A stretch of DNA of 64,000 nucleotides, taken from positions 138,471-202,470 of the forward strand of contig JAJYCX010000001.1 in the NCBI GenBank assembly GCA_021778015.1. The letters are read 5' to 3'. Source of the DNA: Pseudomonadota bacterium (GTDB lineage: Bacteria > Pseudomonadota > Gammaproteobacteria > UBA1113). Position numbers and translations under genes: made by a program. Under the pieces are notes generated by a model, which was not told the origin of the DNA, ran no database searches, and saw only the letters and a list, made by a program, of their open reading frames with translations. Below are positions 5,338 through 38,800 of this stretch, one piece after another. The stretch's first letter is position 1; every line of letters begins with the position of its first letter.

Positions 5338-5357
5338 CCAAACATCCTTGATATTAA

Positions 5358-7356: not shown

Positions 7357-7569
7357 GGATATCGCCCTTCTAAGCTAAATAGAGAACCTACCGCAGTTTA
7401 AATTAAAATCCGTCAAAGCGCAAAAAGGCCTAAGCTATGCATAATTTCCTTATAAAGTTAAGGTTTGAGTGGATTTGTCTTTTGGTTATGTTTTAAACAA
7501 ACCTGCCCTTTTAAGCTGGGCAAAAAATGAGCTTTTTTGTTTTATACGCACAAATTAACCCAATCCCCC

Positions 7570-7598
7570 TTGCTATTTAGCCGCAAATCCACTACGAT
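7570..7598 (+). promoter_or_regulatory. Sigma70-type promoter for tRNA-Asn
   Basis: TTGCTA (7570-7575), 17-nt spacer, TACGAT (7593-7598), ending 13 nt before the tRNA 5' end. Confidence 0.5.
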
Positions 7599-7611
7599 AG
7601 CGCCTTGTTGT

Positions 7612-8335
<724 letters not shown>

Positions 8336-8343
8336 ATTGGATA

Positions 8344-9375: not shown

Positions 9376-9457
9376 TTTCTGCTTTCTTCATCTACATTTT
9401 AGCGCTAAGAGTATATAAAGAAGTGGGCCCTATGTACAGTTATTGTTGCTTCAAAGC

Positions 9458-10315: not shown

Positions 10316-10376
10316 ATTGAGAGTACATACCTAAGCTTTTTTATAGGGGCGGTTCAAAAACCACCCTACAAATTTA

Positions 10377-10844: not shown

Positions 10845-10934
10845 TGTGTACTCCTTGTTTAATATTATTGTAACTACTCGTATCATGTAATAAGAAAAAC
10901 CTATGCCGGATAGATTAGCGCATATTTTCGCTTT

Positions 10935-10959
10935 CCGCTCCCTGACGGTCGCGGCTCGG
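10935..10959. repeat. 25-nt dispersed intergenic repeat unit (REP-like), copy A
   Basis: CCGCTCCCTGACGGTCGCGGCTCGG between the cysS stop and the bcp start. Same unit at 16359, 56201, 56240 (inverted), 60299 and 62659, plus a partial copy at 56871. Confidence 0.85.
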
Positions 10960-10965
10960 TATACG

Positions 10966-12357
10966 TTATTGATATCGCCACGTCGTAGTATCGCCACTGT
11001 CTTCTATCATAACTCCTTTTTGTGCCAATTGCTGACGGATTTCATCGGCCTTGCCCCAATTTTTCTCTGCACGCGCGACGCCACGCAATGCAATTAAATT
11101 TTCTATTTCGCCTGCATCGATGGCAGAATGAGCATCTTGTTGAAAATAATGTTCAACCGGTTCGGTTAATAAACCCAGTACTGCGGCTAACTTTTTCAGC
11201 ATGTGTGCTAAGGCCGTCGCGTTGTCTAATCCTTCGGCCTTGCTGCGATTTAATTCACGCGCCAAATCAAATAACACCGACAAAGCTACTGGCGTATTAA
11301 AATCGTCGTCCATGGCTTCAATAAAACGCGTTTCATAAGTCTTAGCCAATTCATTTTTTGTTATTTCTGTAGGCAGTTCAATGCCACGTAAAGCACCATA
11401 CAAGCGATCTAATGCGCTTTGCGCGCCCTCTAGCGCTTCCAATGAATAATCCACTGGGCTGCGATAATGGCTGGATAAAAGGAAATAACGAACCACTTCA
11501 TGCTTCCATTCACGCAATACATCGCGTATGGTAAAGAAGTTATTTAAAGATTTAGACATCTTTTCTTTATTGATTTCAACAAAGCCTACATGCATCCAAT
11601 AATTTACAAAGGGCTTGTCGCATGCACCTTCGGCCTGTGCTATTTCGTTTTCATGATGTGGAAACTTTAAATCGTTGCCACCACCGTGAATGTCGAAGGG
11701 TTGCCCTAGTTCTAAACTGGACATCACCACACATTCCGTATGCCAACCTGGACGGCCATTGCCCCAGGGCGAAGGCCAATATGGCTCATTTTCTTTGGAT
11801 AATTTCCACAATACAAAATCTAGAGGCGTTTTCTTAGCCTCTTCGATGGCTATACGCGCCCCAGATTCTAATGCTTCTAAATCTTTATGTGCTAATTTGC
11901 CATAATCTTTAAATTGCATCACATCAAAATAAACATCGCCCGTACTGCCAACATAGGCTAAACCCTTGTCAATGAGCGTTTCTATTAAACTTATCATCTG
12001 AGGAACATAATCCGTCGCTTTAGGCTCAACATCGGGCGCTAAAGTTCCTAGCGCTTCCATATCTTCCGTTAAAGCACTGATAAAACGTGCCGTTAAAGAT
12101 TGCATGGATTCTTTGTTTTCAAAAGCTCTTTTAATAATTTTGTCGTCTATGTCGGTGATGTTACGCACATACTTGACTTTATAGCCGCAATAACGCAAAT
12201 AACGGTTGACCACATCAAAAGCCACCATGGCTCTGGCATGACCTATATGACAATAATCATAGACAGTGATGCCGCACACATACATACTGACTTCATTAGC
12301 CCGTATGGGTTTAAAAATTTCTTTTTGTTTGCTTTTACTATTATAGATGCTTAGCAT
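10966..12357 (-). CDS. cysS: Cysteine--tRNA ligase
   Basis: 463 aa. CGITVYDYCHIGHA (HIGH) and KMSKS motifs. Starts 2 nt after the gltX stop. Confidence 0.95.
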   Translation of the reverse strand: MLSIYNSKSKQKEIFKPIRANEVSMYVCGITVYDYCHIGHARAMVAFDVVNRYLRYCGYKVKYVRNITDIDDKIIKRAFENKESMQSLTARFISALTEDMEALGTLAPDVEPKATDYVPQMISLIETLIDKGLAYVGSTGDVYFDVMQFKDYGKLAHKDLEALESGARIAIEEAKKTPLDFVLWKLSKENEPYWPSPWGNGRPGWHTECVVMSSLELGQPFDIHGGGNDLKFPHHENEIAQAEGACDKPFVNYWMHVGFVEINKEKMSKSLNNFFTIRDVLREWKHEVVRYFLLSSHYRSPVDYSLEALEGAQSALDRLYGALRGIELPTEITKNELAKTYETRFIEAMDDDFNTPVALSVLFDLARELNRSKAEGLDNATALAHMLKKLAAVLGLLTEPVEHYFQQDAHSAIDAGEIENLIALRGVARAEKNWGKADEIRQQLAQKGVMIEDSGDTTTWRYQ

Positions 12358-12359
12358 AA

Positions 12360-13787
12360 TTAATTCTCTGCGTTAAATAAGGTAGTAGCAGCCGCAAAAC
12401 GGTGTTGCACTTGGTCACTGCCCATCAGCTGCAATATATCCTCTAATTGTGGTCCATGTAAGGAGGCCGTTAATGCCACACGTAAGGGTTGAAATAAAGC
12501 GCGGCCCTTAGCATTGCAGGTTTGTTTCAACTGCTGTTGCAAATAAGCGTAATCTACGCCTTTTTCCTTGACTGCTTCGCTGGCCGTGGTGAAAAAGCTT
12601 TTGCCCGCTTGTATGAGCACATCATGCAATGCAGGCTCCAATGAAAGTGTATCTGCATATAAACGCGTGGCCCACTCGTCAAACTCATTAGGAAAAACAA
12701 TATTGGGTTGTATGGTCTTTAAAAACAATTCTTGTTTGGCCTCGGGTATTAAATTAAATTGTGAGCTATGCTCGCCAATCCATAATCTGAATGCAGAGGG
12801 TGATAATTGCATCACCGCTTCTTTTTGCCAATGCAATAATTGTTGTTCATCAAAATGCGCTGCTGATCGACTCAAATGGCTAAAATCAAAATTGCCTGCC
12901 AATTGCGCTAAACTCATAAACTGTTCATCGCCGTAGTAATGCCCCAAACGCGCTAAATAATTGTTGATGGCTAAGGGTAAATAGCCTTCTTTACGTAATG
13001 TTTGTATATTACGGCTGCCATTGCGTTTAGACAAAGGGGTATGGTCTGCGCCCATGATCAAGGAAATATGGCAATATTGCGGTACTCTTAAACCCAGTGC
13101 TTGCAAAATCAATATTTGTCGCGGCGTGTTGGTTAAGTGATCTTCACCACGGACTACATGGGTTACACCCATCATAGCATCGTCTATCGCGTTGCAATAC
13201 ATGAAAGGTGCGGTACCATCGGCGCGACGTATGATAAAGTCGCCTATATCATCCGTTAAAAAGCGTTGTGGTCCCTTGGCTAAATCCGTAAATTCTACTG
13301 CTTCGCCATCTGGCATTCTAAAACGCAATGCAGGTTTTTTACCCGCAGCAATTCTAGCTTTGATATCTTCAGCAGATAAATGTCTGCAAGTACCTGCATA
13401 ACGCGGTGGTAGACCTTGAGAACGTTGCACCTTACGCATTGCTTCTAAATCTTCGTCGCTGCAAAAGCAGGGATAAGCATTTAACCCTAAGCGTTGATAA
13501 TCGGTATCGTAAATGGCTTGGCGTTCTGATTGCCAGTAGGGACCGTTGTTGCCACCGACTTCAGGGCCTTCTTGCCACTCTAATCCTAACCAATGCAGAT
13601 CGGCCATCAATGCTTCGGTATATTCGCTTTTAGAACGCTCTTTATCGGTATCTTCAATACGCAATAAAAATGTCCCTTGCAGTTTTTGTGCCAATAAGGC
13701 GTTGAACAACGCCGTACGTACATTACCGAAGTGAATCAATCCAGTGGGACTGGGGCAAAAACGGAACTTTAGGGGCAATGTTTGCAT
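12360..13787 (-). CDS. gltX: Glutamate--tRNA ligase
   Basis: 475 aa. RFCPSPTGLIHFGNVRTALFN (HIGH-type) and PLSKRNG (KMSKS-type). Full-length with anticodon-binding domain, so not the short GluQ-RS. Confidence 0.9.
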   Translation of the reverse strand: MQTLPLKFRFCPSPTGLIHFGNVRTALFNALLAQKLQGTFLLRIEDTDKERSKSEYTEALMADLHWLGLEWQEGPEVGGNNGPYWQSERQAIYDTDYQRLGLNAYPCFCSDEDLEAMRKVQRSQGLPPRYAGTCRHLSAEDIKARIAAGKKPALRFRMPDGEAVEFTDLAKGPQRFLTDDIGDFIIRRADGTAPFMYCNAIDDAMMGVTHVVRGEDHLTNTPRQILILQALGLRVPQYCHISLIMGADHTPLSKRNGSRNIQTLRKEGYLPLAINNYLARLGHYYGDEQFMSLAQLAGNFDFSHLSRSAAHFDEQQLLHWQKEAVMQLSPSAFRLWIGEHSSQFNLIPEAKQELFLKTIQPNIVFPNEFDEWATRLYADTLSLEPALHDVLIQAGKSFFTTASEAVKEKGVDYAYLQQQLKQTCNAKGRALFQPLRVALTASLHGPQLEDILQLMGSDQVQHRFAAATTLFNAEN

Positions 13788-13822
13788 AACATACTCTTAT
13801 ACTTTAGAATGCTTTAATTATT

Positions 13823-13961
13823 GACGTATACTCACAGCAGTTGGTTTTTAGGGTAGGCGCCTAGCCCTCGAGCACAAGGAGTGTATGTATTCATACATGA
13901 CTTGTGTGAGATGGGCGAAGGCAACACCCCCTAAAAATCAAATGCGAAGAGTATATTATAC
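13823..13961. repeat. ~139-bp imperfect palindrome in the divergent gltX/lpxH intergenic region
   Basis: Centre is ATGTAT-TC-ATACAT at 13885-13898. Arms share TATACTC, GTTTTTAGGG/CCCTAAAAA and CACAAG/CTTGTG blocks in mirror order. Confidence 0.7.
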
Positions 13962-13983
13962 TTGAGATTGCAGCGAATACAAC

Positions 13984-14697
13984 ATGTCTATACTCGTCAT
14001 TTCTGACCTACACTTAAACCCAGCGGAGCCAGAAGGCTTGGCCGCTTTAACTGCATTGAGGCAAAAATGGGCCGAGAATTGTTCCGACTTATACATTTTA
14101 GGGGACTTTTTTGAAGCTTGGGTGGGTGATGACGACAATAATGCTTTTGTAGAAGCCACCGTTGCCGAGCTACAGGCCTGGCATCAACTGGGTATAAAGC
14201 TTTATTTTATGCCGGGAAACCGTGATTTTCTATTGGGTAAAGACTTCGCCAAGCGCGTGGACTGGACTCTGCTTTCTGACCCCCATATCGTTGATTTTTA
14301 TGGTATTCCGGTGTTGTTAAGTCACGGGGATTTATTGTGTACAGGCGACTTGGCCTATCAACGTTGGCGTCATTATGCCAATAGTCACTGGCTACAACGC
14401 TTATTTTTAGCTCTGCCTTTATGGCTGCGTCGTAAAATGGCACGAAAAGCCCGCCAGAAAAGTAAAAATTATGTACAAACCATAGATTCTGTGAAAATGG
14501 ATATCGTCACCGATGCTGCTCTCGCGGCTATGAAACAAGCCCATAGCACTGTACTAATCCATGGGCATACACATAGGCCGGGTTATCATATTTGCTATCG
14601 AGATCACCGCGCCTTTACCCGCGTCACCCTCAGTGACTGGCATGATGGGGCTCATGTATTGGTATGGGAGAAGGATGTAGGCTGTCGTTTGGTTTAA
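13984..14697 (+). CDS. lpxH: UDP-2,3-diacylglucosamine diphosphatase
   Basis: 237 aa. Calcineurin-like metallophosphoesterase motifs ISDLHL, GDFFEAWVGDD, PGNRDF, SHGD, GHTHRP. Confidence 0.9.
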   Translation: MSILVISDLHLNPAEPEGLAALTALRQKWAENCSDLYILGDFFEAWVGDDDNNAFVEATVAELQAWHQLGIKLYFMPGNRDFLLGKDFAKRVDWTLLSDPHIVDFYGIPVLLSHGDLLCTGDLAYQRWRHYANSHWLQRLFLALPLWLRRKMARKARQKSKNYVQTIDSVKMDIVTDAALAAMKQAHSTVLIHGHTHRPGYHICYRDHRAFTRVTLSDWHDGAHVLVWEKDVGCRLV

Positions 14698-14744
14698 GGT
14701 TGCACTTTTGTCAATATCATAAAAAAGGTCGGGAATCCAGCACA

Positions 14745-14840
14745 TTGTCATCCTCGGCCGAAGGCCGGGGATCCAGTTTCAAATCAAGTTTTCCCTGGAT
14801 CCCCGACTGCGGCCTCGCGGCCTGGTCGAGGATGACAACG
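14745..14840. repeat. ~95-bp MITE-like palindromic element, copy 1
   Basis: Terminal inverted repeats TTGTCATCCTCG / CGAGGATGACAA and internal GGGGATCCAG / CTGGATCCCC arms. Lies between convergent lpxH and purF. Homologous copies at 21955-22047 (inverted) and 60369-60474. Confidence 0.85.
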
Positions 14841-14875
14841 TTTTAGAAAGAATAAACATTAATGAAACCGACTCG

Positions 14876-16327
14876 CTACCCTCTCGCATGCGCTAGTGCC
14901 TCTAAATACTCGGCATCGATATCGCCGGTAATATAATCGCCGCTAAATACGGAATCTTCAAAACGGGTAATAGCAGGATTACCTTCACGCGCTGCGGCAA
15001 TTAAATCTTTGAGATCTTGGAAAATCAAACCGTCCGCTCCGAGCAAAGTTTTGATTTCCTCTACACTGCGACCATGAGCAATTAGATCGCTCGCTCGCGG
15101 CATATCGATACCATACACATTAGGTGCAACGACTTCCGGCGCTGCAGAAGCAAAATAAACTTTTTTGGCCCCGGCCGCACGTGCCAGCTCGATAATTTCC
15201 TTCGAGGTCGTGCCACGCACAATAGAATCATCGACCAATAATACATTCTTACCCTGAAATTCCAAATCGATAGCATTTAATTTACGTTGCACCGACTTAC
15301 GGCGTATTGCCTGACCGGGCATAATAAAGGTACGGCCTATGTAATGGTTTTTAACCAAACCTTCGCGGTATTTTAACCCCAAACGCAAGGACATAGCATA
15401 CGCTGCTGTACGGCTGGTTTCAGGTACGGGCATAACCACATCGATATCGTGATTAGGCCATACGCGCAATAACTTTTCAGCTAGATATTCACCTAACTTC
15501 AAACGAACCTTATACACCAATATCTTAGACATGATGGAATCGGGTCGTGATAAATAAACAAATTCAAATAAACACGGTGATAGTTGCGGGTGCTTGGCGC
15601 ATTGTTGCCGCTGCATCTGCCCATCTACACTGATAAAAACAGCTTCACCTGGAGCTACATCGTCTAATAGTTGAAAACCTAGGCTATCTAAAGCCACGGT
15701 TTCAGAGGCAAAAAGATAATCGGGCGTAGCATTATCATTTTGTCTTACACCCAAGGACAAAGGCCTGATGCCATAAGGATCGCGAAAGGCTAATAACCCA
15801 TACCCAGCAATCAGCACGATGACCGCATAGGCGCCTTTGCATCTAGGATGCAGTTGACGCACGGCCTGAAATAGTTTTTCGGGTGTTAACTCGCCTACGG
15901 CCACACGTTGCAATTCTTCCGCAAAGACATTCAGTAATACTTCTGAATCTGAGCGGGTATTTAAATGTCTAAAGCCTTTTTGCCATAATTCTTTTTGCAA
16001 GCTAGCGGCATTGGTTAAGTTGCCATTGTGTACTAAGCACAAGCCATAGGGAGAATTGACATACAGCGGTTGTGCTTCGGCCGCAGAATCAGTGCCCGCA
16101 GTAGGATAACGCACATGCCCTAAACCATAATGACCGCGCAAACGCAGTATATCTTGAGCATGCACCACATCGCGCACAAAACCCTTACCTTTTTGTAGGT
16201 GTAATTGCCGGTCTTCACAAGTAACCATGCCCGCTGCATCCTGACCTCTGTGCTGTAATAGCGTTAAGGCATCATACAACTCAGCGCTAACATTTTGTTT
16301 AGAAACTAAACCGACTATACCACACAC
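14876..16327 (-). CDS. purF: Amidophosphoribosyltransferase
   Basis: 483 aa. MCGIVG Ntn-Cys start and PRPP loop VLLVDDSIVRGTT. Confidence 0.95.
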   Translation of the reverse strand: MCGIVGLVSKQNVSAELYDALTLLQHRGQDAAGMVTCEDRQLHLQKGKGFVRDVVHAQDILRLRGHYGLGHVRYPTAGTDSAAEAQPLYVNSPYGLCLVHNGNLTNAASLQKELWQKGFRHLNTRSDSEVLLNVFAEELQRVAVGELTPEKLFQAVRQLHPRCKGAYAVIVLIAGYGLLAFRDPYGIRPLSLGVRQNDNATPDYLFASETVALDSLGFQLLDDVAPGEAVFISVDGQMQRQQCAKHPQLSPCLFEFVYLSRPDSIMSKILVYKVRLKLGEYLAEKLLRVWPNHDIDVVMPVPETSRTAAYAMSLRLGLKYREGLVKNHYIGRTFIMPGQAIRRKSVQRKLNAIDLEFQGKNVLLVDDSIVRGTTSKEIIELARAAGAKKVYFASAAPEVVAPNVYGIDMPRASDLIAHGRSVEEIKTLLGADGLIFQDLKDLIAAAREGNPAITRFEDSVFSGDYITGDIDAEYLEALAHARG

Positions 16328-16358
16328 ATTTCACTCTCTTTTGTTAGTTAATTTTTCT

Positions 16359-16383
16359 CCGCTTCCTGACGGTCGCGGCTCGG
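16359..16383. repeat. 25-nt REP-like unit, copy B
   Basis: CCGCTTCCTGACGGTCGCGGCTCGG between the cvpA stop and the purF start. Confidence 0.8.
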
Positions 16384-16394
16384 ATCCATTCATT

Positions 16395-16943
16395 TTAAGT
16401 TGTTTTTTTCAATTCCGATGCCGTATCGGCCGCATCAGTATTGCTACTGGCATCGGTAACAGAAGTATAATTACTGCGATATTGATCCAACCAAGCAAAA
16501 CTCTCTTGCAGATATTTAACCATGCCCGAATCCTGCCACCATGGTTTTTCTTTTAAGGAAGTATTCGAAATACCCCATACCACCAAGGCTACGACTACAA
16601 AACCACGCAGAATACCGAATAAAAATCCTACGAATTTATCTAGGTAAGTGGATTCAGATTTCTTCATAAAATGTAAAATAATTTTTTTGAGCACCGTACC
16701 TATCAATAAGGTTGCCAGAATAATGCTGATCACCGCCGCCCACAACCTAGCGCTGGTATTGGGAATAATGTCTACAAAATAAAATTCAACCTTGGATGAA
16801 TATTCAAAAGCTAACCACAGCGCTGCTAACACTATGAGTAAAGACAAGGATTCATGTACAAAGCCACGCATAAAACCAATCAAACTAGACGCAACCACTA
16901 TGGCAATTAAGATATAATCTAATGTCGTTAATGTAATAGTCAT
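16395..16943 (-). CDS. cvpA: Colicin V production membrane protein CvpA
   Basis: 182 aa, four predicted TM helices. Conserved position between folC and purF; 4-nt overlap with folC. Confidence 0.8.
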   Translation of the reverse strand: MTITLTTLDYILIAIVVASSLIGFMRGFVHESLSLLIVLAALWLAFEYSSKVEFYFVDIIPNTSARLWAAVISIILATLLIGTVLKKIILHFMKKSESTYLDKFVGFLFGILRGFVVVALVVWGISNTSLKEKPWWQDSGMVKYLQESFAWLDQYRSNYTSVTDASSNTDAADTASELKKTT

Positions 16944-18202
16944 GCTATTTCTCTCCCATTTTCCATTTTCATCACTGCCGCCACCGTATGAAAAGAGCCA
17001 AAAACCAAGATAGTCTCGTTGGCAGCTGCATTCTCTCGCGCAGCGCTATAAGCAGCATCCATTGTGGCATATTTTTGATACGCTGTAATCCCCAGCTCGT
17101 TAAAATCAGCCACTATGGCCTCTAAAGGGGCGGCTTTTTTATCTTTTAAGGGCGCCAAATACCATTGGGCATCACAATCTTGCCAGGGTAAAAGGCTAGC
17201 CAATCTGTCCTTCGTCGCCAGCATAGAAAAGACTATATGCAAGCGCCCTTGCCAACCCAAGCGGCTAAGTTGCCTATACAACTCTCTACTCGCTTGAGGA
17301 TTATGTGCTACATCGACTATGCACCTAGGTTCAATGCTTACCGTTTGAAAACGCCCGGCTACACGAACCGTGGCTAAACCCTGACGAATGGCTACTGGCG
17401 TAATGGGCAATCTGGGTTCCAGCAAGGCTACGGTTTGCAAGGCCAATGACGCGTTGTGCAACAGTACTGTGGGCTTAGGCAGATCGCCATAATGATGATC
17501 TTGATTACGCCAATGCCAAGTCTTTTCTTCTTCCTGAAAATAAAAATCGCTACCCTGCAAATATAATTGAGCGCCTATGTCATTGGCACTTTCAACTACG
17601 GAACTTACCGCATCCCTATCACCATAAATAGCAGGCTTATCAGCTCGAAAAATCCCCGCTTTCTCGACACCAATTTGCTCGCGGCTATTGCCCAAATAAT
17701 CGGTGTGGTCTATATCGACCGTGGTAACAATAGCCACATCGCTATCGATGATATTGACTGCATCTAAGCGGCCCCCCAGACCCACTTCTAAAATAACCAC
17801 ATCCAATTTATTTTTTTTGAATAGATATAAAGCTGCCAAGGTAGCAAATTCAAAATAGGTTAAGGTAATAGTGTCTCTAGCGGCTTCTACTGCCGCAAAG
17901 GCCTCGCACAAAGCGACATCGCTAACGCTATGGCCATCGATAACAACACGCTCATTGAATTGCAATAAATGCGGTGAGGTATACACCCCGCAACGATAAC
18001 CAGCAGCGCCGTAAATAGCCGCCAGCGTTGCTACCGTGCTGCCTTTGCCATTGGTGCCACCCACCGTAATAACGGGACAATTGAATTTAAGTACGGAAAG
18101 CCGCGCTGCAACTTGTAAAACACGCTCTAAGGACATATCGATTTCAAGTGCATGCTGTTGTTCTATTTCGGTAAGCCATTGCGCCAGCGTTTTATTAGCC
18201 AT
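16940..18202 (-). CDS. folC: Bifunctional folylpolyglutamate synthase / dihydrofolate synthase
   Basis: 420 aa. Mur-ligase P-loop VGGTNGKGST. Lies in the accD-folC context. Confidence 0.9.
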   Translation of the reverse strand: MANKTLAQWLTEIEQQHALEIDMSLERVLQVAARLSVLKFNCPVITVGGTNGKGSTVATLAAIYGAAGYRCGVYTSPHLLQFNERVVIDGHSVSDVALCEAFAAVEAARDTITLTYFEFATLAALYLFKKNKLDVVILEVGLGGRLDAVNIIDSDVAIVTTVDIDHTDYLGNSREQIGVEKAGIFRADKPAIYGDRDAVSSVVESANDIGAQLYLQGSDFYFQEEEKTWHWRNQDHHYGDLPKPTVLLHNASLALQTVALLEPRLPITPVAIRQGLATVRVAGRFQTVSIEPRCIVDVAHNPQASRELYRQLSRLGWQGRLHIVFSMLATKDRLASLLPWQDCDAQWYLAPLKDKKAAPLEAIVADFNELGITAYQKYATMDAAYSAARENAAANETILVFGSFHTVAAVMKMENGREIA

Positions 18203-18206
18203 TTCT

Positions 18207-19064
18207 TTATTGCGCTACTAATAACTTAGCCAGCAACCCGGCAATGCGATCACGCAGTTCACGTCTATCGATGATCAAATCGATATGGCCGTGCTCTAAT
18301 AGAAATTCACTAGTTTGAAAACCTTCAGGCAATACTTCACGCACCGTTTGCTCTATTACCCTAGGGCCTGCAAAGCCGATCAAAGCCTTAGGCTCAGCGA
18401 TGATGATATCGCCCAACATACTTAAACTGGCCGACACCCCACCCATAGTGGGATTCGTCAATACAGAAATGTAGGGTAATTTTTCTTGATGAAAACGTTG
18501 CAATGCAGCACTAGTCTTTGCCATTTGCAGCAAAGAGGTTAAACCTTCTTGCATGCGCGCACCACCGCTGGCGGAAAAGCACACAAAGGGGCATTTTTGT
18601 TGTAAAGCGCGCTCAACACCCCGCACAAATTTCTCGCCCACCACAGCGCCCATAGAGCCGCCTATGAAGGAATATTCAAATACGGCCACTACTATAGGTT
18701 TTTCTTTAAGCTGCCCTTCCATCACCACCAAAGCGTCTTTTTCGCCGGTATTTTTCTGCATATGCACTAAGCGGTCTTTATAGCGTTTGGTGTCTTTAAA
18801 CTTGAGTAGATCGCTGGCATGCAATTCATTGGCCAATTCTTTACCACTATCTGCATCCAGAAATTGACTTAAACGCATACGGGCACTGATGTAAAAGTGA
18901 TGGCCACATTTTGGACATACTTCTATGCTGCGCTCCAATTCCGGTTTATACAGCATACCCTTACATTGTGGGCAATTAACCCACAAACCTTCGGGTACAT
19001 TAGCCCCTTTGCCTTCAGTAGAAGTACGAATCTTAGATGGTAATATTTTGGACAGCCAGCTCAT
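18207..19064 (-). CDS. accD: Acetyl-CoA carboxylase carboxyltransferase beta subunit
   Basis: 285 aa. Zn-ribbon [26 protein letters not shown] followed by the carboxyltransferase domain. Confidence 0.95.
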
Positions 19065-31400: not shown

Positions 31401-34400
31401 TTGCTGCCAAATGGCTTTCGGTCAAAGCAGCACAATGGGCTATAGCCAAACGCGTAAACGAAATTTTGGCGTCTGCAATACAACGCAATACTTTCTCTTG
31501 TTTTTCTATATCCCATTGATTTGAACTTATACCGCCTGCTTTCCGCACATAGCGCCTAAAATCTAGCTCATTCACAATTTGTATTTGCAATGTTTTAGAT
31601 TTAAGATTCAAAAATGCTCGGCTATATCCTTCAGAATACAATTGTTTTAGTATACTATCTTTTTGTTCAGCCTCGGTGGAGAATTTAGTAAAAATTCTTA
31701 ATGCATCGGTAGGTGTAAATAGCTTATTTTCATCTTGCTCATCAAGCGCTTTTTTCTGCTTCTCCGACAAGCTCATCGCTTTTTGTACTGCTTTTGTGGT
31801 ACTGCCTATCTCTCCTTCTTTCCCATATGACTTGGCACTCAAAGAGTTAAACCGTTTTCCTGTTTGATTAAGTAAGGGAAATTCATCAAAAGCTTTACCA
31901 TATAACTTCCCAAGAACAGGGTTTAATTTCTTTAATAGTGCTAAATGCGTGATCGTCGGTGTGTGACGTAATATAGCTTGTAACTGTGTAAAACGCTCCC
32001 ACAATGCGACTACAGCTTCCTCATCTAAGGGAAAAGTTATCATCACGGGTAATTCTGCATCTTTGGAACCAAAAAATCCTTTGGCAATATTTATAGCGCC
32101 TATATCTTGCAAACGTCCTCGCGTTCTTTTATCAAAAATGCGATGCGCTTGTGCTTGATATTCTTCTACCTCTTTAGCCCATTCTTGTAAAAACTGCTCC
32201 ACAGATAAGCCAATAATGCGATCACGCCAAGCTGGATGCACCGGCTCACGCATAGATTCTAAGCAAAACAATATTGTTTTAACTTGCAAAGTGCCATCTT
32301 CTGCCAATGGAGTTACAAAAGCATGGTCGTTGTCTATAACAATAATGCGATTGGCTTCTGTGCCATCCGCTAAAATATGCTCCATCAGAATGTGATTATC
32401 TCCTTTACCATCTTCCGGATGAATAATCATAGCCCCTAAAATTTGTGCTGAAATCTGACGTTTATCTAGGTGTTTATAAAAAGAAGTATTTTTATCTGGA
32501 TTTTCTAGCATATCGCTTAGCATCGTACCCATCGCTGTTTGCGAAAAAAGAGCCGCATGCACTTGTTTCTTATTATCGGTAATGGCCAAACAATCGCTAG
32601 GCGCTACCAAATCGCCAAATAGTCTATTTAATAATATGGCCACTGCAAATTCTATCGCGGGTATCTCCGGGCGTGCTTTAATATGCAGTTGCACTTCACC
32701 ATATTGCACTGCTTTTACAGGACGTCTACCATGTTTTTCCTTTACTACGCTTAACATCACAGGAGATTCTGCTACAATCTCCTCTATTTTGGCTGGTGGC
32801 AAATCGAAAGCCGTTTGTTCCCATACTTTCCACAGTGCTGTAGGCAATGAAAATAATCCCGAACTCACCCCTTGCACTGGTCTACCTCCTTCTGAGTGCT
32901 GCCATTGAGGTAGTCCTAACCACCATCTCCAAGTAATTGAATTTTGTTTTAGCCGTTTAAAAACACCTTGCTTTTGCGATGCATCAAGATGTGTATCACA
33001 CCATTCCAGCACTTCTGGTATATTACGGCATTCTTTGGCTCCATATGCAACGACCATGATGAACCATTCAGAATTATCCCGTTGCACCATTTCAGAATCG
33101 TCACTACGCACCATTCTATCTAATAGTGATCGGCTCGTTTTCCCATCGCAAAGATTGATATCTGCGCCATGCATGCACAATGCAGCTAATACACTTTCTG
33201 CCATTGCTGTGCGTTCAGGCCCTAACTGTGGAGGACTTTCTATCTTTGCCCACTGCAATAATGGTGTGTTACCCATGGCATCATAAACATTGGGTTGACA
33301 ACTATGATGGGTTAATAATACTTCCGCCATGGCAGTTACAGTGGCCAGATCAGAGTAATATAAATACATTTCACAAAAATAATGTAGGGGTGTTTTAAGC
33401 GTTTCATCCATAGGTACTCCTACGCTGGCACCCAGACTCAATAAATGCGTTACCACAAAGACGGAACCTTGTTTGATCGCCGCAACCAGCCAACGTTGCC
33501 ATAATTCCTGCCGCCCCTCCAACGGCATGCCTTCTTCCCAATCTAGCCGTGTGCTATTCTGTAATAAACTAAAAGCTTGCAACAAAAACCAATGTTCCGG
33601 CTCCGCTTGCTTAGCCCAATTCTCAGTTCGCAGCAGCTTAAAAACAAATTGGCTAATTTCTACAGTTCCTTTGGGCGATGCATTTTGAGGCTGTCCCAAA
33701 AAATCTTGTTCATACAGCTTATAGACTTCGCCTTCATGCTCTGCGACACCTTTTTGAGGTTCAAAGGGTAGCAGATAATAACCATGAGCCACTGTTTCCA
33801 GGTGCAACGTCTTTTCATAATCGCGAATGGTAGGGTTCTTCTTTTTAGCCTGAGTTTCTTGCGCAATCACATCATAAGCGGCCACCACTGTGGGATACAA
33901 CTCCTTTAACAAATCTTCGTGAGTTATTTTCGAATTCGCCCTCAGAAGGAGCTGTAGTTTTTCCCATTGCGCTAAAATAAAATTAAGCGTTTTCTCGGGT
34001 AGTTTCACCAACAGACGTTCAAGCTGCTTTGAGCTTAACACTCCTTGCTGTTGCCATGCGACATATTCTTGGTTACGCCTTGCCACCAGGCATAACCAAG
34101 TTAGCCACTGACTGCGTGCAGAGCTTGCCAGTAAACGTGCGCATACATTGGGATCAATAGATTGCGTTAATAATTCCGGCAGCCAGTATAAACTGTTTTT
34201 AATCGTTAACCCTAGCTTAGGCGCATCAGATTCTTTTTTAATCACCTGCATAAATGGCATGCCTAGGCTCATGTCACTGTCAATACTGACTATACGACAT
34301 TGCTGCAGATTTCTTTCTTTATCATAGATAAGTTGTACACGAAAATTATCCAATTTAGCATCTTGCGGTAAGCTCAATAATAAACCAACCAATAATCCGC

Positions 34401-35781
34401 TAATTGCTTCTTTATCTAAATAGTCCGTCAGAACTCGCTCAATTTCTACTATTGCTTCAACAGCACTTAGTTTAGGGAATAGTTCAAATAAAGAAGGAAG
34501 AAGTTTTAAAATCTCGGCAATGGCTGTAATGCTTTGTCCAAGCATAAGCTCTGGATAAGTGTGTATTAAGGCTAACAATACTTGTAGGGCACTTAAATCA
34601 TGCATGCCTTCTTGATATATCTCTCTAAGAATAATTGCCCGTCTATTATCCGACAACAATGGATCATTAGCCTTCTGAATTTCTTCAAAGCACTCTTCTA
34701 ACGCTTTTTTTTCACAAATGCGATCAAAGCATTGTCCAAAAGACGCGGCCATTGCTACGTGTTCATCTTCCGTTACAGGTGTTTTAACAAAAACTTCAGG
34801 AAAATACTCTTTAGCTTGCGCTAACAACTCGCTATAACCTAGTTTTGCATCTTCTAAAATAGGGATGAGTGTAGCTACACTTATTCTTCTTTTTAAAAAA
34901 CGCAGTCCTTCTAGTAAAGATATAAACTTTTTAAGGCACATCCCTTCAATGCTTAATCCCACTTGAACCATACCACCCGTAGTGCGATGACCATCTGCTC
35001 TGTCTAAAGGAACGGCTTCAATACTCAACAAGCCCGTAGGCGCCGCGGCCAGTCGATTACCCGCTGGCAATTGAATTAGGCTCGATGCAGCATATTCTTT
35101 TCCGGGATCAATGAGTGCAATAGCTCTACCTTCACCATTAATGACCACAATAGGATCTGGCTTGTAATGCCCACCATTGGCTGAACACACAGCGTGAGCG
35201 CCCGTGCCATTTTCGCGGCGCTCTGTTCCATCTGCATATATACACAGCAATCGCCGTGCCGTGGCAACATCTAAGCTAAAATAACCTACTTCTAAAATAG
35301 CTACCGCAACACGCGTTTGAATTTGTTCGACTCCAGCCGATAATATGGATTCATAACCTTGTTGAATAGCAATGAGTTCTTTTAATGCTAAATCGCGCCG
35401 GCTCCAATGACTATTACTAACCGCAGCGATTGCTGTGACTACTTTTTCAGCAGCCAAACGTATAGAAGTTTCGCGTGTATTTTCGTACTGAAAATGATAA
35501 CTAGGTAAACATTTCCTCACTACAGCCATCACTGGCTCTGAGATAAAGGGGGGATCATCGGGATGAATCAAACCAGACAGTGTGGCTAAATGCGCACGAT
35601 GTTCATCCTTTTCTAAAGCAAGAAGTTCTTCTTCTAAAACAAGATGAATATCTTCTTCTAAAATAGAATGTTCGTTTTTAGTTTGCAATGCATAAAACAC
35701 TGATGGCAGCGCTTGATATTCACTACCTAATAAAATATTTAGATGCTGTGGTAACAGCTCCAAGTCTTGGGGGATGGGCAT
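22429..35781 (-). CDS. Giant 4,450-aa multidomain protein: unknown N-terminal ~1,000 aa, kinase-like core, Cys-containing LRRs, roughly 80 ankyrin-type repeats, Glu-rich C-terminal tail
   Basis: One uninterrupted 13,353-nt ORF. Repeat consensus is DGNTALLWAVKNGQIEMVDHLLSHYPxQVSLxEKDx. LRR segment reads AHCAALTESHLAAILRYSEGLAYLKLVDCPNLSNGFF..LTLIQCDGLTESEW (~31110-31470). Kinase-like motifs at 32317-32700. C-terminus reads EELPSLGEVDEEETVLASEEESVEERRSGPSI. Confidence 0.85.
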   Translation of the reverse strand: MPIPQDLELLPQHLNILLGSEYQALPSVFYALQTKNEHSILEEDIHLVLEEELLALEKDEHRAHLATLSGLIHPDDPPFISEPVMAVVRKCLPSYHFQYENTRETSIRLAAEKVVTAIAAVSNSHWSRRDLALKELIAIQQGYESILSAGVEQIQTRVAVAILEVGYFSLDVATARRLLCIYADGTERRENGTGAHAVCSANGGHYKPDPIVVINGEGRAIALIDPGKEYAASSLIQLPAGNRLAAAPTGLLSIEAVPLDRADGHRTTGGMVQVGLSIEGMCLKKFISLLEGLRFLKRRISVATLIPILEDAKLGYSELLAQAKEYFPEVFVKTPVTEDEHVAMAASFGQCFDRICEKKALEECFEEIQKANDPLLSDNRRAIILREIYQEGMHDLSALQVLLALIHTYPELMLGQSITAIAEILKLLPSLFELFPKLSAVEAIVEIERVLTDYLDKEAISGLLVGLLLSLPQDAKLDNFRVQLIYDKERNLQQCRIVSIDSDMSLGMPFMQVIKKESDAPKLGLTIKNSLYWLPELLTQSIDPNVCARLLASSARSQWLTWLCLVARRNQEYVAWQQQGVLSSKQLERLLVKLPEKTLNFILAQWEKLQLLLRANSKITHEDLLKELYPTVVAAYDVIAQETQAKKKNPTIRDYEKTLHLETVAHGYYLLPFEPQKGVAEHEGEVYKLYEQDFLGQPQNASPKGTVEISQFVFKLLRTENWAKQAEPEHWFLLQAFSLLQNSTRLDWEEGMPLEGRQELWQRWLVAAIKQGSVFVVTHLLSLGASVGVPMDETLKTPLHYFCEMYLYYSDLATVTAMAEVLLTHHSCQPNVYDAMGNTPLLQWAKIESPPQLGPERTAMAESVLAALCMHGADINLCDGKTSRSLLDRMVRSDDSEMVQRDNSEWFIMVVAYGAKECRNIPEVLEWCDTHLDASQKQGVFKRLKQNSITWRWWLGLPQWQHSEGGRPVQGVSSGLFSLPTALWKVWEQTAFDLPPAKIEEIVAESPVMLSVVKEKHGRRPVKAVQYGEVQLHIKARPEIPAIEFAVAILLNRLFGDLVAPSDCLAITDNKKQVHAALFSQTAMGTMLSDMLENPDKNTSFYKHLDKRQISAQILGAMIIHPEDGKGDNHILMEHILADGTEANRIIVIDNDHAFVTPLAEDGTLQVKTILFCLESMREPVHPAWRDRIIGLSVEQFLQEWAKEVEEYQAQAHRIFDKRTRGRLQDIGAINIAKGFFGSKDAELPVMITFPLDEEAVVALWERFTQLQAILRHTPTITHLALLKKLNPVLGKLYGKAFDEFPLLNQTGKRFNSLSAKSYGKEGEIGSTTKAVQKAMSLSEKQKKALDEQDENKLFTPTDALRIFTKFSTEAEQKDSILKQLYSEGYSRAFLNLKSKTLQIQIVNELDFRRYVRKAGGISSNQWDIEKQEKVLRCIADAKISFTRLAIAHCAALTESHLAAILRYSEGLAYLKLVDCPNLSNGFFEVLDKYSKKLIALTLIQCDGLTESEWGFFGPIFEDLELVRIEENLQLQRISLKTEVNKLSRLKRLKIDKNPQLVSYIIDGDELVQRDVLGRTSLLQAAANGDIVKLDRLLLRYPGHVSLKERDSEGKTALLCAAWAGQIKMVEYLLSHYSPQVSLLETDTFGKTALLCAAWNGQMELFVHLLSNHPEQVALEEKDKDGKTALLLAAENGQIDMVKRLLSRYPEQFSLSERDIEGRTALLLAVANGKIAMLKYLLSSYPEQVSLLEKSKDGRTALLWAAANGQIEMFKYLLSNHSKQVSIDERDNNDRTALLWAAANGQINMLEHLLLNYPKQVSLSEKDANGGVALLLASANGQIEMVDHLLSRYSGKEWPHVQQVWLWQRDRAGKTVLLCAVWNDQVEMVKHFLKQYSQDISLKETDNRGYTALWIAIDREQIKMLDCLLPYYTKEMLLQEKSNIGETALFWAAAKGKVVAPDHLLSHHSEKFSVGQKDKDGNTLLLYALKNGQIEVVYFLLSRHPKYASLQERDNDGNTPLLWAIKNDEMEIFDYLLQHYPEQVSLNEKDKDGNTVLLWAVKNKKYLMIGCLLKYYPQQVWLTEKDNDGPVILFLSGETGWTVMADRILHHYYPEQLLPDARDKDGNTALFWAVKAGQIEIVDHLLRQYPDQISLAEKDRDGKSALFWAIKAGQISMVDYLLQYSQKEILLADKDNYGNTPLFRAVAYGKATMIKHLLSHYPQQVWLTAKNSKGHIILFFHEKTGWIVIVHNILHNYLEKTLSETRDRNGDTVLLWAVKTGQIKIVDHLLWHYPDEISLLEKDENGNMALLLAAANGQIPMLDHLLARYPGQVSLAEKTNTGVTALLLAAANGQVQMLDHLLKHYPGRVSLTEKSYTGRTALLVAAAAGQIEMLEHLLKCYPDQVSLAEKAYSGYTALLLAAANDQVQMLDHLLARYSNQVSLAEKANDGRTALLLAAANGQVQMLDHLLKHYPGQVSLAEKDNSGCTALLRAAWAGQIEMLEHLLARYPGQVSLAEEMNDGRTALLLAAENGQVPMLEHLLARYPDQVSLAEKTHNGGTALLGAAWTGQIEMLDHLLVCYPDQVSLAEETNDGCRALLQAAANGQIEMLDHLLERYPEQVSLAEKANFGCTALLGAVVTGQVRMLDHLLERYPGQVSLTEKAHNGGTALLVAAWNGEIDMLDHLLACYPDQVSLAEKMNDGRTALLMAAANGQVLMLDHLLVRYPDQISLAEETNDGRTALLLAAANGQVQMLEHLLECYPDQVSLAEKANIGSTVLLVAAENGKIDMLDHLLKRYPDQVSLAEKTNDGRTALLLAVCHGETKMLDHLLDHYSDQVFLTDRDNDGNTVLLWALKNEQTEMVDHLLSHYPKEVVGEKDKDGNTILLWALKNGHIAIVDHLLSSRFSEEIVMGKDNEGNAALLWAVKNGEMRIVDHLLSYYPKEVSGGKDNDGNTTLLWAVKNKKIDMINHLLSHYPKEVAGGKDNDGNTALLWAVKSGQMQMVDHLLSHYPKEVSGGKDNDGNTALLWAVKSSQMQMVDHLLSHYPKEVAGGKDNDGNTALLWAVKNGQTEMIDHLLSPYQEEIIDEKDNDGNTALLWAIKNGHVKVIDRLLLCHPDRIYYEEDNEGNTVLLFAVKNGQIDVVDHLLSHYSEYVSLLEENMINDDSALFIAIKSGQVKMVDHLLSYYSEKIALLEEDYRGNTALLWAIENADIAMVECLLSHDPNKVLLTKKNQEGNTALLRAVKNGQIEMVDYLLTHYSQQILLAEKDNNGNTALLWAVKNGQIEMIDHLLRFYPQQKLVLDVDKDGDTVLLCAVKTGQIAVFEHLLFKYPEQVLFDGVSLLCAVKNEQPEMIDHLLSRYSERVFPTEKDDYGRTVLLCAIPNGQIDVVERLLSLYPQEVSLSDKDDFGNTALLLAVKFGQIKMMDHLLLNHPGQMSLSEKDSYGHSPLMCAVKTGQIAMVDHLLLNYCQQVSLAEKDSNGNAALLCAVKSGQIAMLDHLLKFYPKQFSLTEKDRRGRNILLLEIVKSGKIKVLDHLLRHYPEQIALPAKSNDKNAPLFWAIKSGQIAMVDHLLSHYPDNVSLEQDRYGRKPLFFAIEKEQIAMVDHLLSHYPDNVSLDQQGFFEGSPMRFAISNGKIAMVDHLLLRYPEQVCFGQKDCHGKLIPILAAVNHKEVEMLDHLLLRYGDRISLADRNKYGTNALLQAARLGHIKMLEHLLSHYGSQVSLADRDNSGNTALLLAVCGGRVEMVSHLLSNYGDQFSLAYKNNHGRTVLLCAAESGDGIKVIEYLLSSYPGLVSLDDRDNEGKTALFCAAEGYYGIKVVDHLLSHYSSQFSLTDKDAHGRTALLCAAAKGRIAMVDHLLSRYRDQVSLTDKDNRGRTILLCAVESYHGFLNEVEMVDHLLLSYPGQVSLADRDHDGNTAFLWAVKNKKIEMARHLLLSYPGQVSLADRDNDGNTALLWAVKNGQTEMVEHLLLHCPEEIVNEKDNDGNTALLWAVKNGHIEMAKWLLSGYPEQVSFFEKDNNGDTVLLCATKSGQIEMLDYLISCHPQTILLSAIRKGDIEKVYSLLHCYPELHSQKTWPSHQHSFVQAVKYGSTKKSEDLILRYQRLALGEKDNDGNTPLLWAVKNGKFEIVDHLLTHYPERVSQWRDNDDDMALLCAVKVGNIDMLDHLLKHYSEHVSLTQKSGMNKTALLCAAENGQVTMMNHLLLHYSDQVSLTEKDLFGTTILCYAARNGQIEIMAYLLSNHSKQISIFEEDKDGNTALFFAVKYGQIEAFDYLLLHYPAQALLIEKALFCAVAIGQINMVNHLLSNYSEQVSLSNKDKDGRTVLLTAVANRQIPMLDHLLTRYPEQVSLAETDNDGRTALMLATEKGLKEMRVYILAKSSAQSSSSEVPQSYRLSSSPHAFNARPVEPRIEELPSLGEVDEEETVLASEEESVEERRSGPSI
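22640..31080 (-). repeat. ~8.4-kb coding tandem array of ankyrin-type repeats (105-108-nt period)
   Basis: Runs from VLGRTSLLQAAANGDIVKLDRLLL (~31075) to GRTALMLATEKGLKEMRVYIL (~22640). Measured DNA periods are 108 nt (CTGCCAGCGA at 27381/27489/27597) and 105 nt (26705/26810). Confidence 0.9.
27270..28870 (-). repeat. Most homogeneous sub-array of the ANK region: about 15 units of 108 nt
   Basis: Recurrent ...TTCTGCCAGCGACACCTGGTCTGGATAGC... every 108 nt. Protein units read GRTALLLAAANGQVQMLDHLLxxYPGQVSLAEKxNx. Confidence 0.85.
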
Positions 35782-35889
35782 AATTCACTCCTTCGGTTTT
35801 CTGCGTTCGAGCTTATCATAAGTATTGAACTAGATCTATCTTTGTTGTACACTACATGTTATGAACTTTATTCATACATAGGATCCCCC

Positions 35890-38800
35890 ATGAAGGAAGA
35901 ATTTATTCTTACAGAAATCACTTTAGATAACATTATTGGCTCCCCACTTTTCCCTGATGTGCTCGCTCAATTAACTATTCTTAATCATTATGTAGCCGGA
36001 GGCACCCTTCTTAACCTAAATGAAAAACGTACATTGTATCTGATGGCAGTTGCTTGGATAAATAGCAATCTAGAGAAATCAGATAAAGAAAAGATTTCTA
36101 AAATTTTATCGCTTAATAACGATGAAGTTGAACAACTAGATGAAGCGGCAATAAAAGAAGTTTTTCCACATCTGCGTAATGTCTTGGCTAAACACACTAT
36201 TATTTGGCATCTATTAAGCGATACAGAGTTTCATCTAGAGGAAGAAGCCGAAAAATTAATTTATTCTGGAGAAAACTATCAGAAAACAATAATTGCGTTG
36301 CAGCAAGCACGTCAAACTTTTATAAAAACCCGCAAAAAAATGGTCAAAGACTTCGTTGAAGATGCGGCACAGCCTAATAAACGCGCTTGGGTCGAAACTT
36401 ACGTTGCTACCATGGAGAAACATTTTGCTCTTTGGCGTAAAAGTATTATCCCTCTAGAAATATCTATCCATTCTCAATTTTTCATCGATCTAACATATCT
36501 TGATTTACGTAAATTGGATCTCAGAAACATTCCGTTACAGCATGTCAATCTAAGTCGCAGTCGCTTAGCAGGCACTTGGCTTACAAAAACAGGGATTTCT
36601 GCCGTACAGTTATCACAAGCAAAAGAATTTAGTCTAGCGGCCGATCTTTCTAGTGAGCTTATTTTGGCTGCACAAGATGAACAATATAAAGACTGGACAC
36701 AACGCCTAGAGGAACGTACTAAAATCTTCCACACATTCAGAGCAAGAATGGATGCCTGTGCTTTCAATAAAAACCCCGATATAGCCCAAGATTCAAACAT
36801 ATTTGAATTCGCTGTAAAACACTGCGAACGTCTAAACAAGCTCGAAGCGGATCTAAACAAACATATCGACGCACAGTCTTTGGAGAAAAAACTGTTAAAC
36901 GACTTAACAGCAGAACAACAAAGCGCGATTTATCTAGCACTTGCACAATCAGAAAAAGAAGAATCTCTGTTGAAGAGCGAATTGACTAGCCTTATCTATA
37001 ACGCTCGGTGTGATTTATGCGCAGCCTATTTTGAAGAAATAGAGAAAAATCTTCTTGCAGATAATTTATACACAGCGCTGAAACTGTTTAATGACCTCTT
37101 AGTTCTAATGCCAACTAATAAGGAAAATGATCCTCTTCCACAAGATTTGGCTATTAAAATTCAAGCGCTGAGAGAGCGTTTACTGGGTTTAGGGCTTGCA
37201 TCCATTCAAAATCTTCTAGCGCGCTCAGAAAAGAAGAAAGAGATTCAAGAAGAAAGTACCAAAACTTTAAAACAGATCCATTCTATGTTAAACCACACTC
37301 TAGAATGGGCACTTCCTTTAGACTTAGAAGTGGCTGTTAATAAAGTACGGCGAGATTTGATCCGCTATAGAATCGAACTCGAAATTGAACAAAATAACTT
37401 TCTAGAAGCAGAAAAATTAATAGAAAAACTTCTGTCAGAAGAGGAAATAAACACACAAGCAGAACGATGCTTTAATGAACTAAAATACTATACAATAGAA
37501 TTAACGGATGAATTTTTAGAAAAAAAAGTAACCCTCACAGCAGAGCAAAGCAAATTAGGTAAGATTTATATTTCCATACAAAAGAATAAAGATTATCTTA
37601 TTTTTGGCATGGATGGACTCATATATAGAGGCGCTCTCTCGGGCGAGCAGATCTCTGCGGCCAAAGAATTATCTCGTTTATTAAGAAACCCTAAACATAG
37701 AAAATCTATTTTATTAAAAATAGCAAAGGAAAGCTATATACATTTGAAATTCGATTTAAGGTTGCAGATAGTAGAAAAACTCATTCAAAAAAGCGAGATA
37801 GAGCAAGCCAGTGGCCAATTAGAGCGTGCTAGCGGTGAACTATATGGTGATGATAAAAAATTGAAACTGGCTAACAGCAGATTGGAACATGCGCACAGCA
37901 AATTGGAGCTGGCTCGTAATAGAATGCACGATATTATAGTCAGCGCTAAAATGCAAAAATATACCTTAGATTTAAGAGAAAAAAGTGCTTTTAAGAACGA
38001 AGCTTTCTGGGAAGGAATATCCGTAAAAGGTATACGCATTTATCTTGCTCCTAAACAAGTTCAGGCTTTAGGGGAACGAGGTCAACATTATAATGAGACT
38101 CTTTTCTTCGCAATAGAGAATGGAAATTTGGAAGAAATTAAATATGGAATTGAATATTTTTCTTGGAGGGCCTATTCACGAAATGAAAGTGGTTGTACTT
38201 CTGTCGTTTTTGCCTGTTTACACGGCCATTTTGATATTGCTCGTTATGTATATGAAAATGGTGGTGTGGTTAGCACAATCCTCACTCTTGGAAAAACAGA
38301 TGTCAATCCATTAGATGAGCTGATTCAGGATAAATATCGGAAAGATAAAGAGCGCTATGAGCCTATTATTCGTTGGCTCATTGATCTTGGTCTTGAACTA
38401 GAACCTAAGAATGCTCTATTGTTAAATGATACTGAGCTTTTTAAAATGAGCTTAGCACAACTACCCGATGACGATTCAAAAAAAGAAAAAATGCGTGAAC
38501 TTTTACAGATTGCAGTAGAAGAAGGCTCAGATATCATAGTAGGATGGATGCTTGAAAATCAAAAAGACTGTGTGACCTCATTTCCAAAAGTTGAATCCAA
38601 AACTAAGTTTTTCTCATTTCTTAATGAAGAAGTCATTACAGTTCCGGAAGACCTCCCTTTACTACATATCGCGTGTAAAAAAGGCCGTGCCGTCATTGTA
38701 ACCGCACTTTTGAAAGATCCGAATACTGCAGGCTCTACTGCCAATAAGCAATCTGCTCTGCTCAATTTAGCTCAATCATTCATAGAACAATATCCGCATC

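Follow-up and report, generated by a model that had tools for sequence, protein, structure and literature searches.

The 64,000-nucleotide window analyzed here (contig JAJYCX010000001.1 of assembly GCA_021778015.1, positions 138,471 to 202,470, from a gammaproteobacterium of the GTDB lineage UBA1113) encodes on its reverse strand a giant ankyrin-repeat (ANK) protein of 4,450 residues, the N-terminal part of which contains two paralogous kinase-like modules, KL1 and KL2. The assignment of residues ~1000–1335 (KL2) as a bilobal protein-kinase-like domain with a full catalytic set is well supported by a predicted structure, and this region very probably represents a kinase-fold domain of a new family. 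The N-terminal core formed by KL1 and KL2 is conserved across a large, as yet unannotated family of giant repeat proteins found in intracellular bacterial lineages associated with protists. The giant protein of this unannotated family is probably a host-directed effector with two catalytically competent atypical kinase modules.

A first-pass annotation, made from the nucleotide sequence without database searches, had proposed a protein-kinase-like set of catalytic motifs in this region. All three motif strings that it quoted are present, with the residue numbers it gave, in a single open reading frame (ORF) of 13,353 nt, which starts with an ATG at 35781 preceded by an AAGGAG Shine-Dalgarno sequence: VQLHIKARPEIPAIEFAV comprises residues 1030–1047 (window 32694–32641), HPEDGKGDNHIL residues 1121–1132 (32421–32386), and VIDNDHAF residues 1148–1155 (32340–32317). 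The putative β3 lysine K1035 is thus encoded at 32679, the catalytic-loop aspartate D1124 at 32412, and the metal-binding aspartate D1150 at 32334. The spacing of these residues (K1035 to D1124, 89 residues; D1124 to D1150, 26 residues) is close to that in PKA (94 and 18 residues), in agreement with the likeness remarked on in the annotation.

An exhaustive phmmer (HMMER) search with residues 940–1340 against 1.84 billion cluster representatives (50% identity clusters) identified 752 representatives at E ≤ 1e-3, 378 at E ≤ 1e-10, and 51 at E ≤ 1e-30. Conservation of the catalytic residues that the annotation had named is high among 139 aligned homologous segments (K1035, 97%; D1124, 99%; N1129, 94%; D1150, 98%), and extends to the αC glutamate E1044 (90%), to P1038 (100%) and E1039 (81%) between K1035 and E1044, to N1151 (92%), D1152 (93%), and F1155 (86%) following D1150, and to W1201 (99%), which with K1168, C1173, and M1177 is among the key residues of the C-lobe. 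The catalytic-loop residue K1126 is a lysine in 72% and an arginine in 16% of the segments. The family consensus reads hxKxxPExPGxE ... NPEDGKPDNY ... (I/V)DNDHAF; the catalytic loop is DGKGDN in the giant protein versus DGKPDN in the consensus, and has the D-x-K-x-x-N form of Ser/Thr-type kinases. The annotation had seen no clear Gly-rich loop in this region, which holds for the canonical form, but it missed G1018 (motif YGRR), which is conserved in 93% of the segments and lies 17 residues before K1035, at the position of a degenerate Gly-rich loop.

The structure of KL2 (residues 1000–1330) was predicted using AlphaFold2 (AF2) with a 26-sequence alignment, giving a model with a predicted local distance difference test score (pLDDT) of 87 and a predicted template modeling score (pTM) of 0.88. 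Its elements follow in the order: two strands, the second of which (residues 1030–1036) contains K1035; the αC helix (1041–1055) containing E1044; two strands; helices (αD/E); the D1124 loop; and two strands, with D1150 directly after the strand comprising residues 1142–1148. K1035 is presumably paired with E1044. The predicted structure is bilobal, with a β-rich N-lobe including αC, a hinge, and a helical C-lobe, and the Lys/Glu pair, catalytic-loop Asp/Asn, and metal-binding Asp of the protein-kinase-like superfamily are all present. Comparison of the model with the PDB using Foldseek gave 358 matches at E ≤ 1e-3, of which the best 50, those listed, are without exception kinases. The top match is type II phosphatidylinositol 4-kinase α (PI4K II-α; PDB 4pla; E = 2.9e-5), with a template modeling (TM) score of 0.47 and a root-mean-square deviation of 5.1 Å over 275 columns, followed by PI4K II-β (9hhm) and 4yc4 (TM 0.40–0.41); eukaryotic protein kinases (ePKs), including RIPK2, CTR1, IRE1, and ERK2, rank below PI4K II with TM scores of ~0.3. 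Among viral predicted structures (BFVD), 76 match at E ≤ 1e-3; those listed are mostly annotated as kinases, the top two being PI3K/PI4K catalytic-domain proteins (TM 0.47), with Ser/Thr kinases next. The confident model and the kinase-only matches among the 50 listed from the PDB bear out the atypical protein or lipid kinase fold that the annotation had tentatively called.

A second copy of the full motif set, missed by the first-pass annotation, is located at residues 207 and 474–503 (YK207P, then LPQD474-A-K476-L-D-N479 and SID501SD). This module, KL1, aligns with KL2 by BLASTP (E = 8e-9) and by profile-profile comparison using hhalign (E = 1.6e-44, probability 100%, 284 columns). Its key residues are a G-loop-like N191-x-x-G194-x-H196 motif, K207, E229, the D474-A-K476-L-D-N479 loop, D501 in IDSD, and W562. 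In 24 aligned KL1-type segments K207, D474, K476, N479, D501, and W562 are invariant, E229 is conserved in 96%, and the G-loop-like motif is also conserved. KL1 corresponds to KL2 with ~175 mostly helical residues (about 283–455 in the AF2 model) inserted after the N-lobe and before the catalytic loop. The separately built KL1 model (pLDDT 87, pTM 0.87) gives PI4K II-β/α structures as its best Foldseek PDB matches (4wtv, 9hhm, and 4hnd first; probability 0.94–1.0), with E values of only ~0.01–0.05 because the helical insert weakens the match. A local-mode hhalign comparison of KL1 with PI4K II was misaligned (E = 0.086) and was not used.

A very long protein might resemble a kinase in its motifs by chance, with no kinase domain present. 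A loose pattern (K, 80–100 residues, DxKxxN, 15–30 residues, [IVL]D) is found in 12% of shuffled sequences of 4,450 residues, so motif spotting alone is statistically not significant. The stricter pattern DxKxxN..[IVL]Dx[DG] has two occurrences in the actual sequence, whereas none of 1,000 shuffles contained it twice. Chance resemblance is refuted by the conservation of the residues across the 752 homologous representatives, by the confident kinase-fold model with its kinase-only listed PDB matches, and by the second, paralogous module, and we give it a negligible probability.

Several results weigh against assigning the modules as kinases, and as lipid kinases in particular. Scans of the N-terminal 1,700 residues with Pfam, NCBIfam, and PADLOC gave no match on KL1 or KL2, and searches of PDB sequences by phmmer (single sequence) and by hmmsearch (26-sequence profile) gave no matches at E ≤ 10. 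By inspection of the sequence, KL2 lacks a canonical GxGxxG loop. The annotation had proposed profile-profile and structure comparisons as checks; the latter gave the kinase matches described above, but hhalign comparison of the KL2 family with PI4K II reached only E = 0.018, or 0.0062 with the 139-sequence profile, at a probability of 3–6%, and the profile similarity is marginal, with confidence limited to the regions of the catalytic and IDN loops. That comparison is underpowered, the PI4K II profile being low in diversity (Neff 1.3; near-identical vertebrate sequences only). The TM score of KL2 to PI4K II is moderate and the C-terminal helical part differs, and the DxKPxN loop, as against DRGNDN in type II PI4Ks, argues against a simple lipid-kinase assignment. 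The evidence for a kinase fold is thus the predicted structure plus conservation, sequence-profile evidence alone being weak; the structure is a computed one, and secretion and a host are putative.

Other searches likewise place the modules outside described families. The Pfam family Pkinase (PF00069) has no match at E ≤ 1 in the giant protein, nor at E ≤ 10 in 26 family members. PF00454 (PI3_PI4_kinase) is the only Pfam family matched by more than one member; it has no gathering-score match in the giant protein, and the matches in 3 of the 26 relatives are sub-threshold (best E 0.061). The modules are therefore filed as a new family in the kinase-fold superfamily. NCBIfam effector models have no match at E ≤ 1 within residues 1–1400, a word-indexed search found no homologs with either the single sequence or the alignment, and the literature searched contains no description of the family. 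A defence-system reading was also considered; PADLOC gave generic ankyrin matches only.

The type II PI4Ks (PI4K2A/PI4K2B; PF00454; PDB 4pla, 4hnd, 4wtv, and 9hhm) are the best structural match of both modules. When the family alignment is compared by hhalign with human PI4K2A (whose sequence agrees fully with PDB 4hnd except where the crystallised construct has Cys-to-Ser changes), IIHPEDGKGDNHIL is paired with IIRNTDRGNDNWLI and VIDNDHAFV with AIDNGLAFP; in this weak match D1124, N1129, and D1150 correspond to D308, N313, and D346 of PI4K2A, respectively. With the motifs matched in this way, the two groups would share the catalytic-loop register D-x-x-x-D-N-aromatic (EDGKGDNH here, EDGKPDNY in the family, and TDRGNDNW in PI4K2A) and the metal-binding motif I-D-N-x-x-A-F; type II PI4Ks, like KL2, have no GxGxxG loop. 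By eye, the K-P...E-x-P-G-like entry from β3 to αC is also similar (hIKxxPExPG here versus FKPKNEEPYG). The annotation's comparison of the IDNxxAF segment with type II PI4Ks agrees with the top structural match and, tentatively at the low hhalign probability, with the register of the motifs. There are clear differences: type II PI4Ks have a glycine at D+2 (DRGNDN), where the KL modules have a lysine in the Ser/Thr-kinase form DxKPxN; the K-to-D spacing is 89 residues in KL2 and 156 in PI4K2A; and the C-terminal helical bundle differs. The CCPCC palmitoylation insert of type II PI4Ks is absent, there being no CC dipeptide and only two cysteines in residues 1000–1330. Moreover, the KL modules are found in bacterial proteins, as tandem copies joined to giant repeat arrays. 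They constitute a new family inside the kinase-fold superfamily rather than a member of the type II PI4Ks.

The kinase fold is also that of the phosphoinositide-kinase effectors of intracellular bacteria (LegA5/AnkK, MavQ, and LepB of Legionella, OpiA of Francisella, and Risk1 of Rickettsia), whose active sites are divergent but PI3K/PI4K-like. Of these, LegA5/AnkK is an ankyrin effector and a PI3K with a kinase fold (PMC11696984; PMC7298712). Atypical kinases of bacteria commonly have D-x-D at the DFG position (DHD in LegA5, DFD in MavQ, and DLD in Lpg2603), and PI3K-type effectors have a catalytic-loop histidine (H297 in Risk1 and H178 in LegA5) (PMC11696984; PMC7298712). Going by the published descriptions, KL2 is set apart from Risk1 and LegA5 by a lysine at D+2 as against their catalytic-loop histidine, and by a metal-binding D-N-D rather than D-H-D. 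The phosphoinositide-kinase effectors are much smaller and have a single module, whereas the giant protein has two.

As to the substrate, we tentatively and only slightly favor a phosphoinositide over Ser/Thr proteins, without regarding either as probable. The PI4K II and PI3K/PI4K structural neighbors and the IDNxxAF motif point toward a phosphoinositide, as, by analogy, may the precedent of LegA5, MavQ, LepB, OpiA, and Risk1. The competing possibility, a little more doubtful, is that KL1 and KL2 are atypical Ser/Thr protein kinases that phosphorylate host proteins recruited by the ankyrin array, not lipids. ePKs (PF00069, including LegK-type effector kinases) share with the modules the bilobal fold, the β3 Lys/αC Glu pair, and the D-x-K-P-x-N loop, in which the D+2 lysine is kept in 72% (with arginine in a further 16%) of KL2 and 100% of KL1 members, a position held by glycine in type II PI4Ks, while PI3K-type effectors have a catalytic-loop histidine; hundreds of ePK structures also match at a Foldseek probability of ~1.0. 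However, their TM scores are below that of PI4K II (~0.3 versus 0.47), Pkinase matches none of the 26 members, and KL2 differs from ePKs in lacking GxGxxG and APE motifs and in having IDND in place of DFG. Neither a recognizable activation-loop phosphorylation site nor, by sequence inspection and the low TM scores, an ePK-type C-lobe is present in KL2, and the segment following IDN (AF-V/P...L-x-x-M-x-x-P) is PI4K II-like by eye.

Conservation of the catalytic residues implies that KL1 and KL2 are quite likely active phosphotransferases. These residues are 90–100% conserved in both modules at an overall identity of only about 25–40%, a signature of selection on catalysis, which makes it very unlikely that the modules are pseudokinases acting as non-catalytic scaffolds, even though KL2 has no canonical Gly-rich loop and the tandem arrangement recalls the JH2-JH1 pair of the JAKs, in which one of two kinase-like modules is a pseudokinase. 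As in JAK-type tandems, two kinase-fold modules in one polypeptide might, by analogy, permit intramolecular regulation; unlike in JAKs, KL1 and KL2 both retain all catalytic residues, and there is no sequence relationship to JAK. It is also improbable, if less so, that the kinase fold serves a different reaction, for example the AMPylation known from SelO or the glutamylation known from SidJ, or that the modules are small-molecule kinases. Several bacterial effectors with kinase folds, SidJ among them, do perform non-kinase chemistry, and the KL1 Foldseek list includes a glucosamine kinase, PsiK, and AmiN at probabilities up to ~0.15; yet the catalytic Asp, D+2 Lys, D+5 Asn, metal-binding Asp, β3 Lys, and αC Glu are all kept, and no SelO, SidJ, or APH structure is among the best 50 of the 358 KL2 PDB matches.

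The family proteins are nearly all very long (median ~1,960 residues, maximum 5,026), and most have two matched stretches. At least two modules are present in 112 of 150 representatives, and in 60 a clear KL1 is followed ~300 residues later by KL2. The homologs are laid out as KL1, a few ankyrin repeats, KL2, often a leucine-rich repeat (LRR) stretch, and then a variable WD40, ANK, or Sel1 array; ankyrin repeats are found at the same inter-module position in homologs P0015, P0019, and P0030, and LRR_6/AtMIF1-LRR matches downstream of KL2 in the latter two. The N-terminal partner of KL2 is exchangeable, since in homolog P0034 (1,370 residues) a putative nucleotidyltransferase (DUF294/DUF294_C, residues 134–428) takes the place of KL1 before a single KL2-type module. 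One relative that was looked up is annotated solely as a "WD40 repeat protein." Among GTDB species genomes, a scan seeded with sequence patterns identified 24 loci in metagenome-assembled genomes (MAGs) of Chlamydiae, Paracaedibacteraceae, Holosporales, other Alphaproteobacteria, Dependentiae, and one gammaproteobacterium, often with several paralogs per genome; the scan detects only members containing NPEDGKPD or IDNDH[AS][FW], so the taxa are undercounted and the genome of the present window was not itself retrieved. Several of the lineages carrying homologs are intracellular associates of protists.

The remainder of the giant protein consists largely of repeats (Table 1). A Pfam scan of residues 1331–1600 gave no match, so the LRR-like stretch downstream of KL2 is not confirmed by it. 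Within the ankyrin array, DNA-level tandem arrays at 26344..28881 (−), with a 108-bp unit present 14.3 times (78% matches), a 324-bp super-unit present 4.7 times (82%), and a 105-bp unit present 8.8 times, indicate recent internal duplication of ankyrin repeats. Arrays of this kind easily collapse or expand when a MAG is assembled, which leaves the exact repeat number uncertain. The acidic C-terminal tail is a possible secretion signal.

Table 1. Features of the giant ankyrin-repeat ORF in window coordinates; the limits of KL1 and KL2 are those of the family hidden Markov model (HMM) matches
Feature	Window coordinates	Strand	Basis
Whole 4,450-residue ORF	22429..35781	−	ORF list, translation, start-site inspection
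KL1, residues 154–661, paralogous to KL2	33799..35322	−	BLASTP, hhalign, conservation, AF2, Foldseek
Short ankyrin stretch between KL1 and KL2, about residues 766–848	33238..33486	−	Pfam Ank/Ank_2 E ~1e-4
KL2, residues 1000–1335, the module flagged by the first-pass annotation	31777..32784	−	Family HMM match E = 8.3e-96; conservation; AF2; Foldseek
Interval given by the first-pass annotation, residues 1028–1164: KL2 catalytic core, β3 Lys to just beyond the IDND motif	32290..32700	−	Translation
Cys-containing LRR-like stretch, about residues 1440–1560	31102..31464	−	By eye in translation only
Ankyrin-repeat array, period 35–37 residues, ~75 repeats by length, 60 recognizable cores	22747..31074	−	Pfam Ank_2 E = 1e-73 (first 400 residues scanned), regular-expression period count
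Ser/Glu-rich acidic C-terminal tail, residues 4371–4450	22432..22671	−	15 Glu and 15 Ser in last 80 residues

Family HMMs detect no kinase-like module in the other ORFs of the window. Divergently transcribed from the giant gene is an ANK protein of ~1,410–1,450 residues (35767..40125, +), with ankyrin repeats around residues 1045–1130 and, like the giant protein, an acidic C-terminal tail, here following a Ser-rich stretch; by the same HMMs it has no kinase-like module. Its listed TTG start (35767) overlaps the start codon of the giant ORF, and the ATG at 35891 is the more plausible true start. On the other side, the C-terminal third of a 527-residue ORF (20274..21857, +) contains a small-GTPase domain of the Ras family (Pfam Ras E = 2.3e-19, residues 361–505), and the N-terminal ~320 residues have no match; such a eukaryote-like GTPase gene adjoining the giant ANK gene suggests an effector gene cluster. 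Three consecutive large ORFs at 40920..45746, 46755..53516, and 53786..55366 (all −; 1,608, 2,253, and 526 residues) lie in a lower-GC stretch (0.35–0.38), match no Pfam family at E ≤ 1e-3, contain no kinase-like module, and may be further orphan effector-like genes. The window flanks (1..19064 and 57877..63967) contain housekeeping genes (gltX and cysS-like tRNA synthetases, a purF-like amidotransferase, FolC/Mur-ligase, and a FadB-like enzyme), which indicates a chromosomal context for the giant gene. The GltX protein of the window is encoded as well on contig DAIDVS010000059.1 of the MAG GCA_027456045.1, most likely the source genome or one very close to it. The only Rfam gathering-threshold match in the window is a single tRNA gene at 7612..7684 (+).

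In the mechanism that we propose, the giant protein would be delivered into a eukaryotic host, as suggested by the taxonomy, the eukaryote-type repeats, the neighboring genes, and the acidic tail. The ~75 ankyrin repeats and the LRR-like stretch may anchor it to a target or membrane of the host, where each kinase module would transfer the γ-phosphate of ATP to a host substrate. A more speculative and rather unlikely extension is that of giant effectors with dual kinases, a family spread by horizontal transfer among lineages from at least three phyla that are known to live inside protists, in which two active PI4KII-like modules cooperate, perhaps sequentially (phosphatidylinositol [PI] to its mono- [PIP] and bisphosphate [PIP2]) or with one priming or regulating the other, and interchangeable ANK, WD40, and Sel1 arrays provide targeting.

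Atypical kinase-fold effectors, including SidJ, MavQ, OpiA, and Lpg2603, have repeatedly revealed new chemistry of host manipulation. Effector kinases of this sort are familiar, but an unannotated tandem-kinase family that is large and crosses phyla is still a useful lead. The present analysis adds KL1, the number and taxonomic spread of the family members, their conserved tandem architecture, and the degenerate G-loop residue G1018; K1035, D1124, and D1150 in KL2 and K207, D474, and D501 in KL1 are clear mutational targets. The kinase modules give giant proteins otherwise described as ankyrin or WD40 repeat proteins a testable enzymatic function, and would add bacterial members to the type II PI4K-like branch of the kinase superfamily, which is sparse. 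The spread of the family over unrelated intracellular lineages is the pattern expected of a successful host-targeting module.

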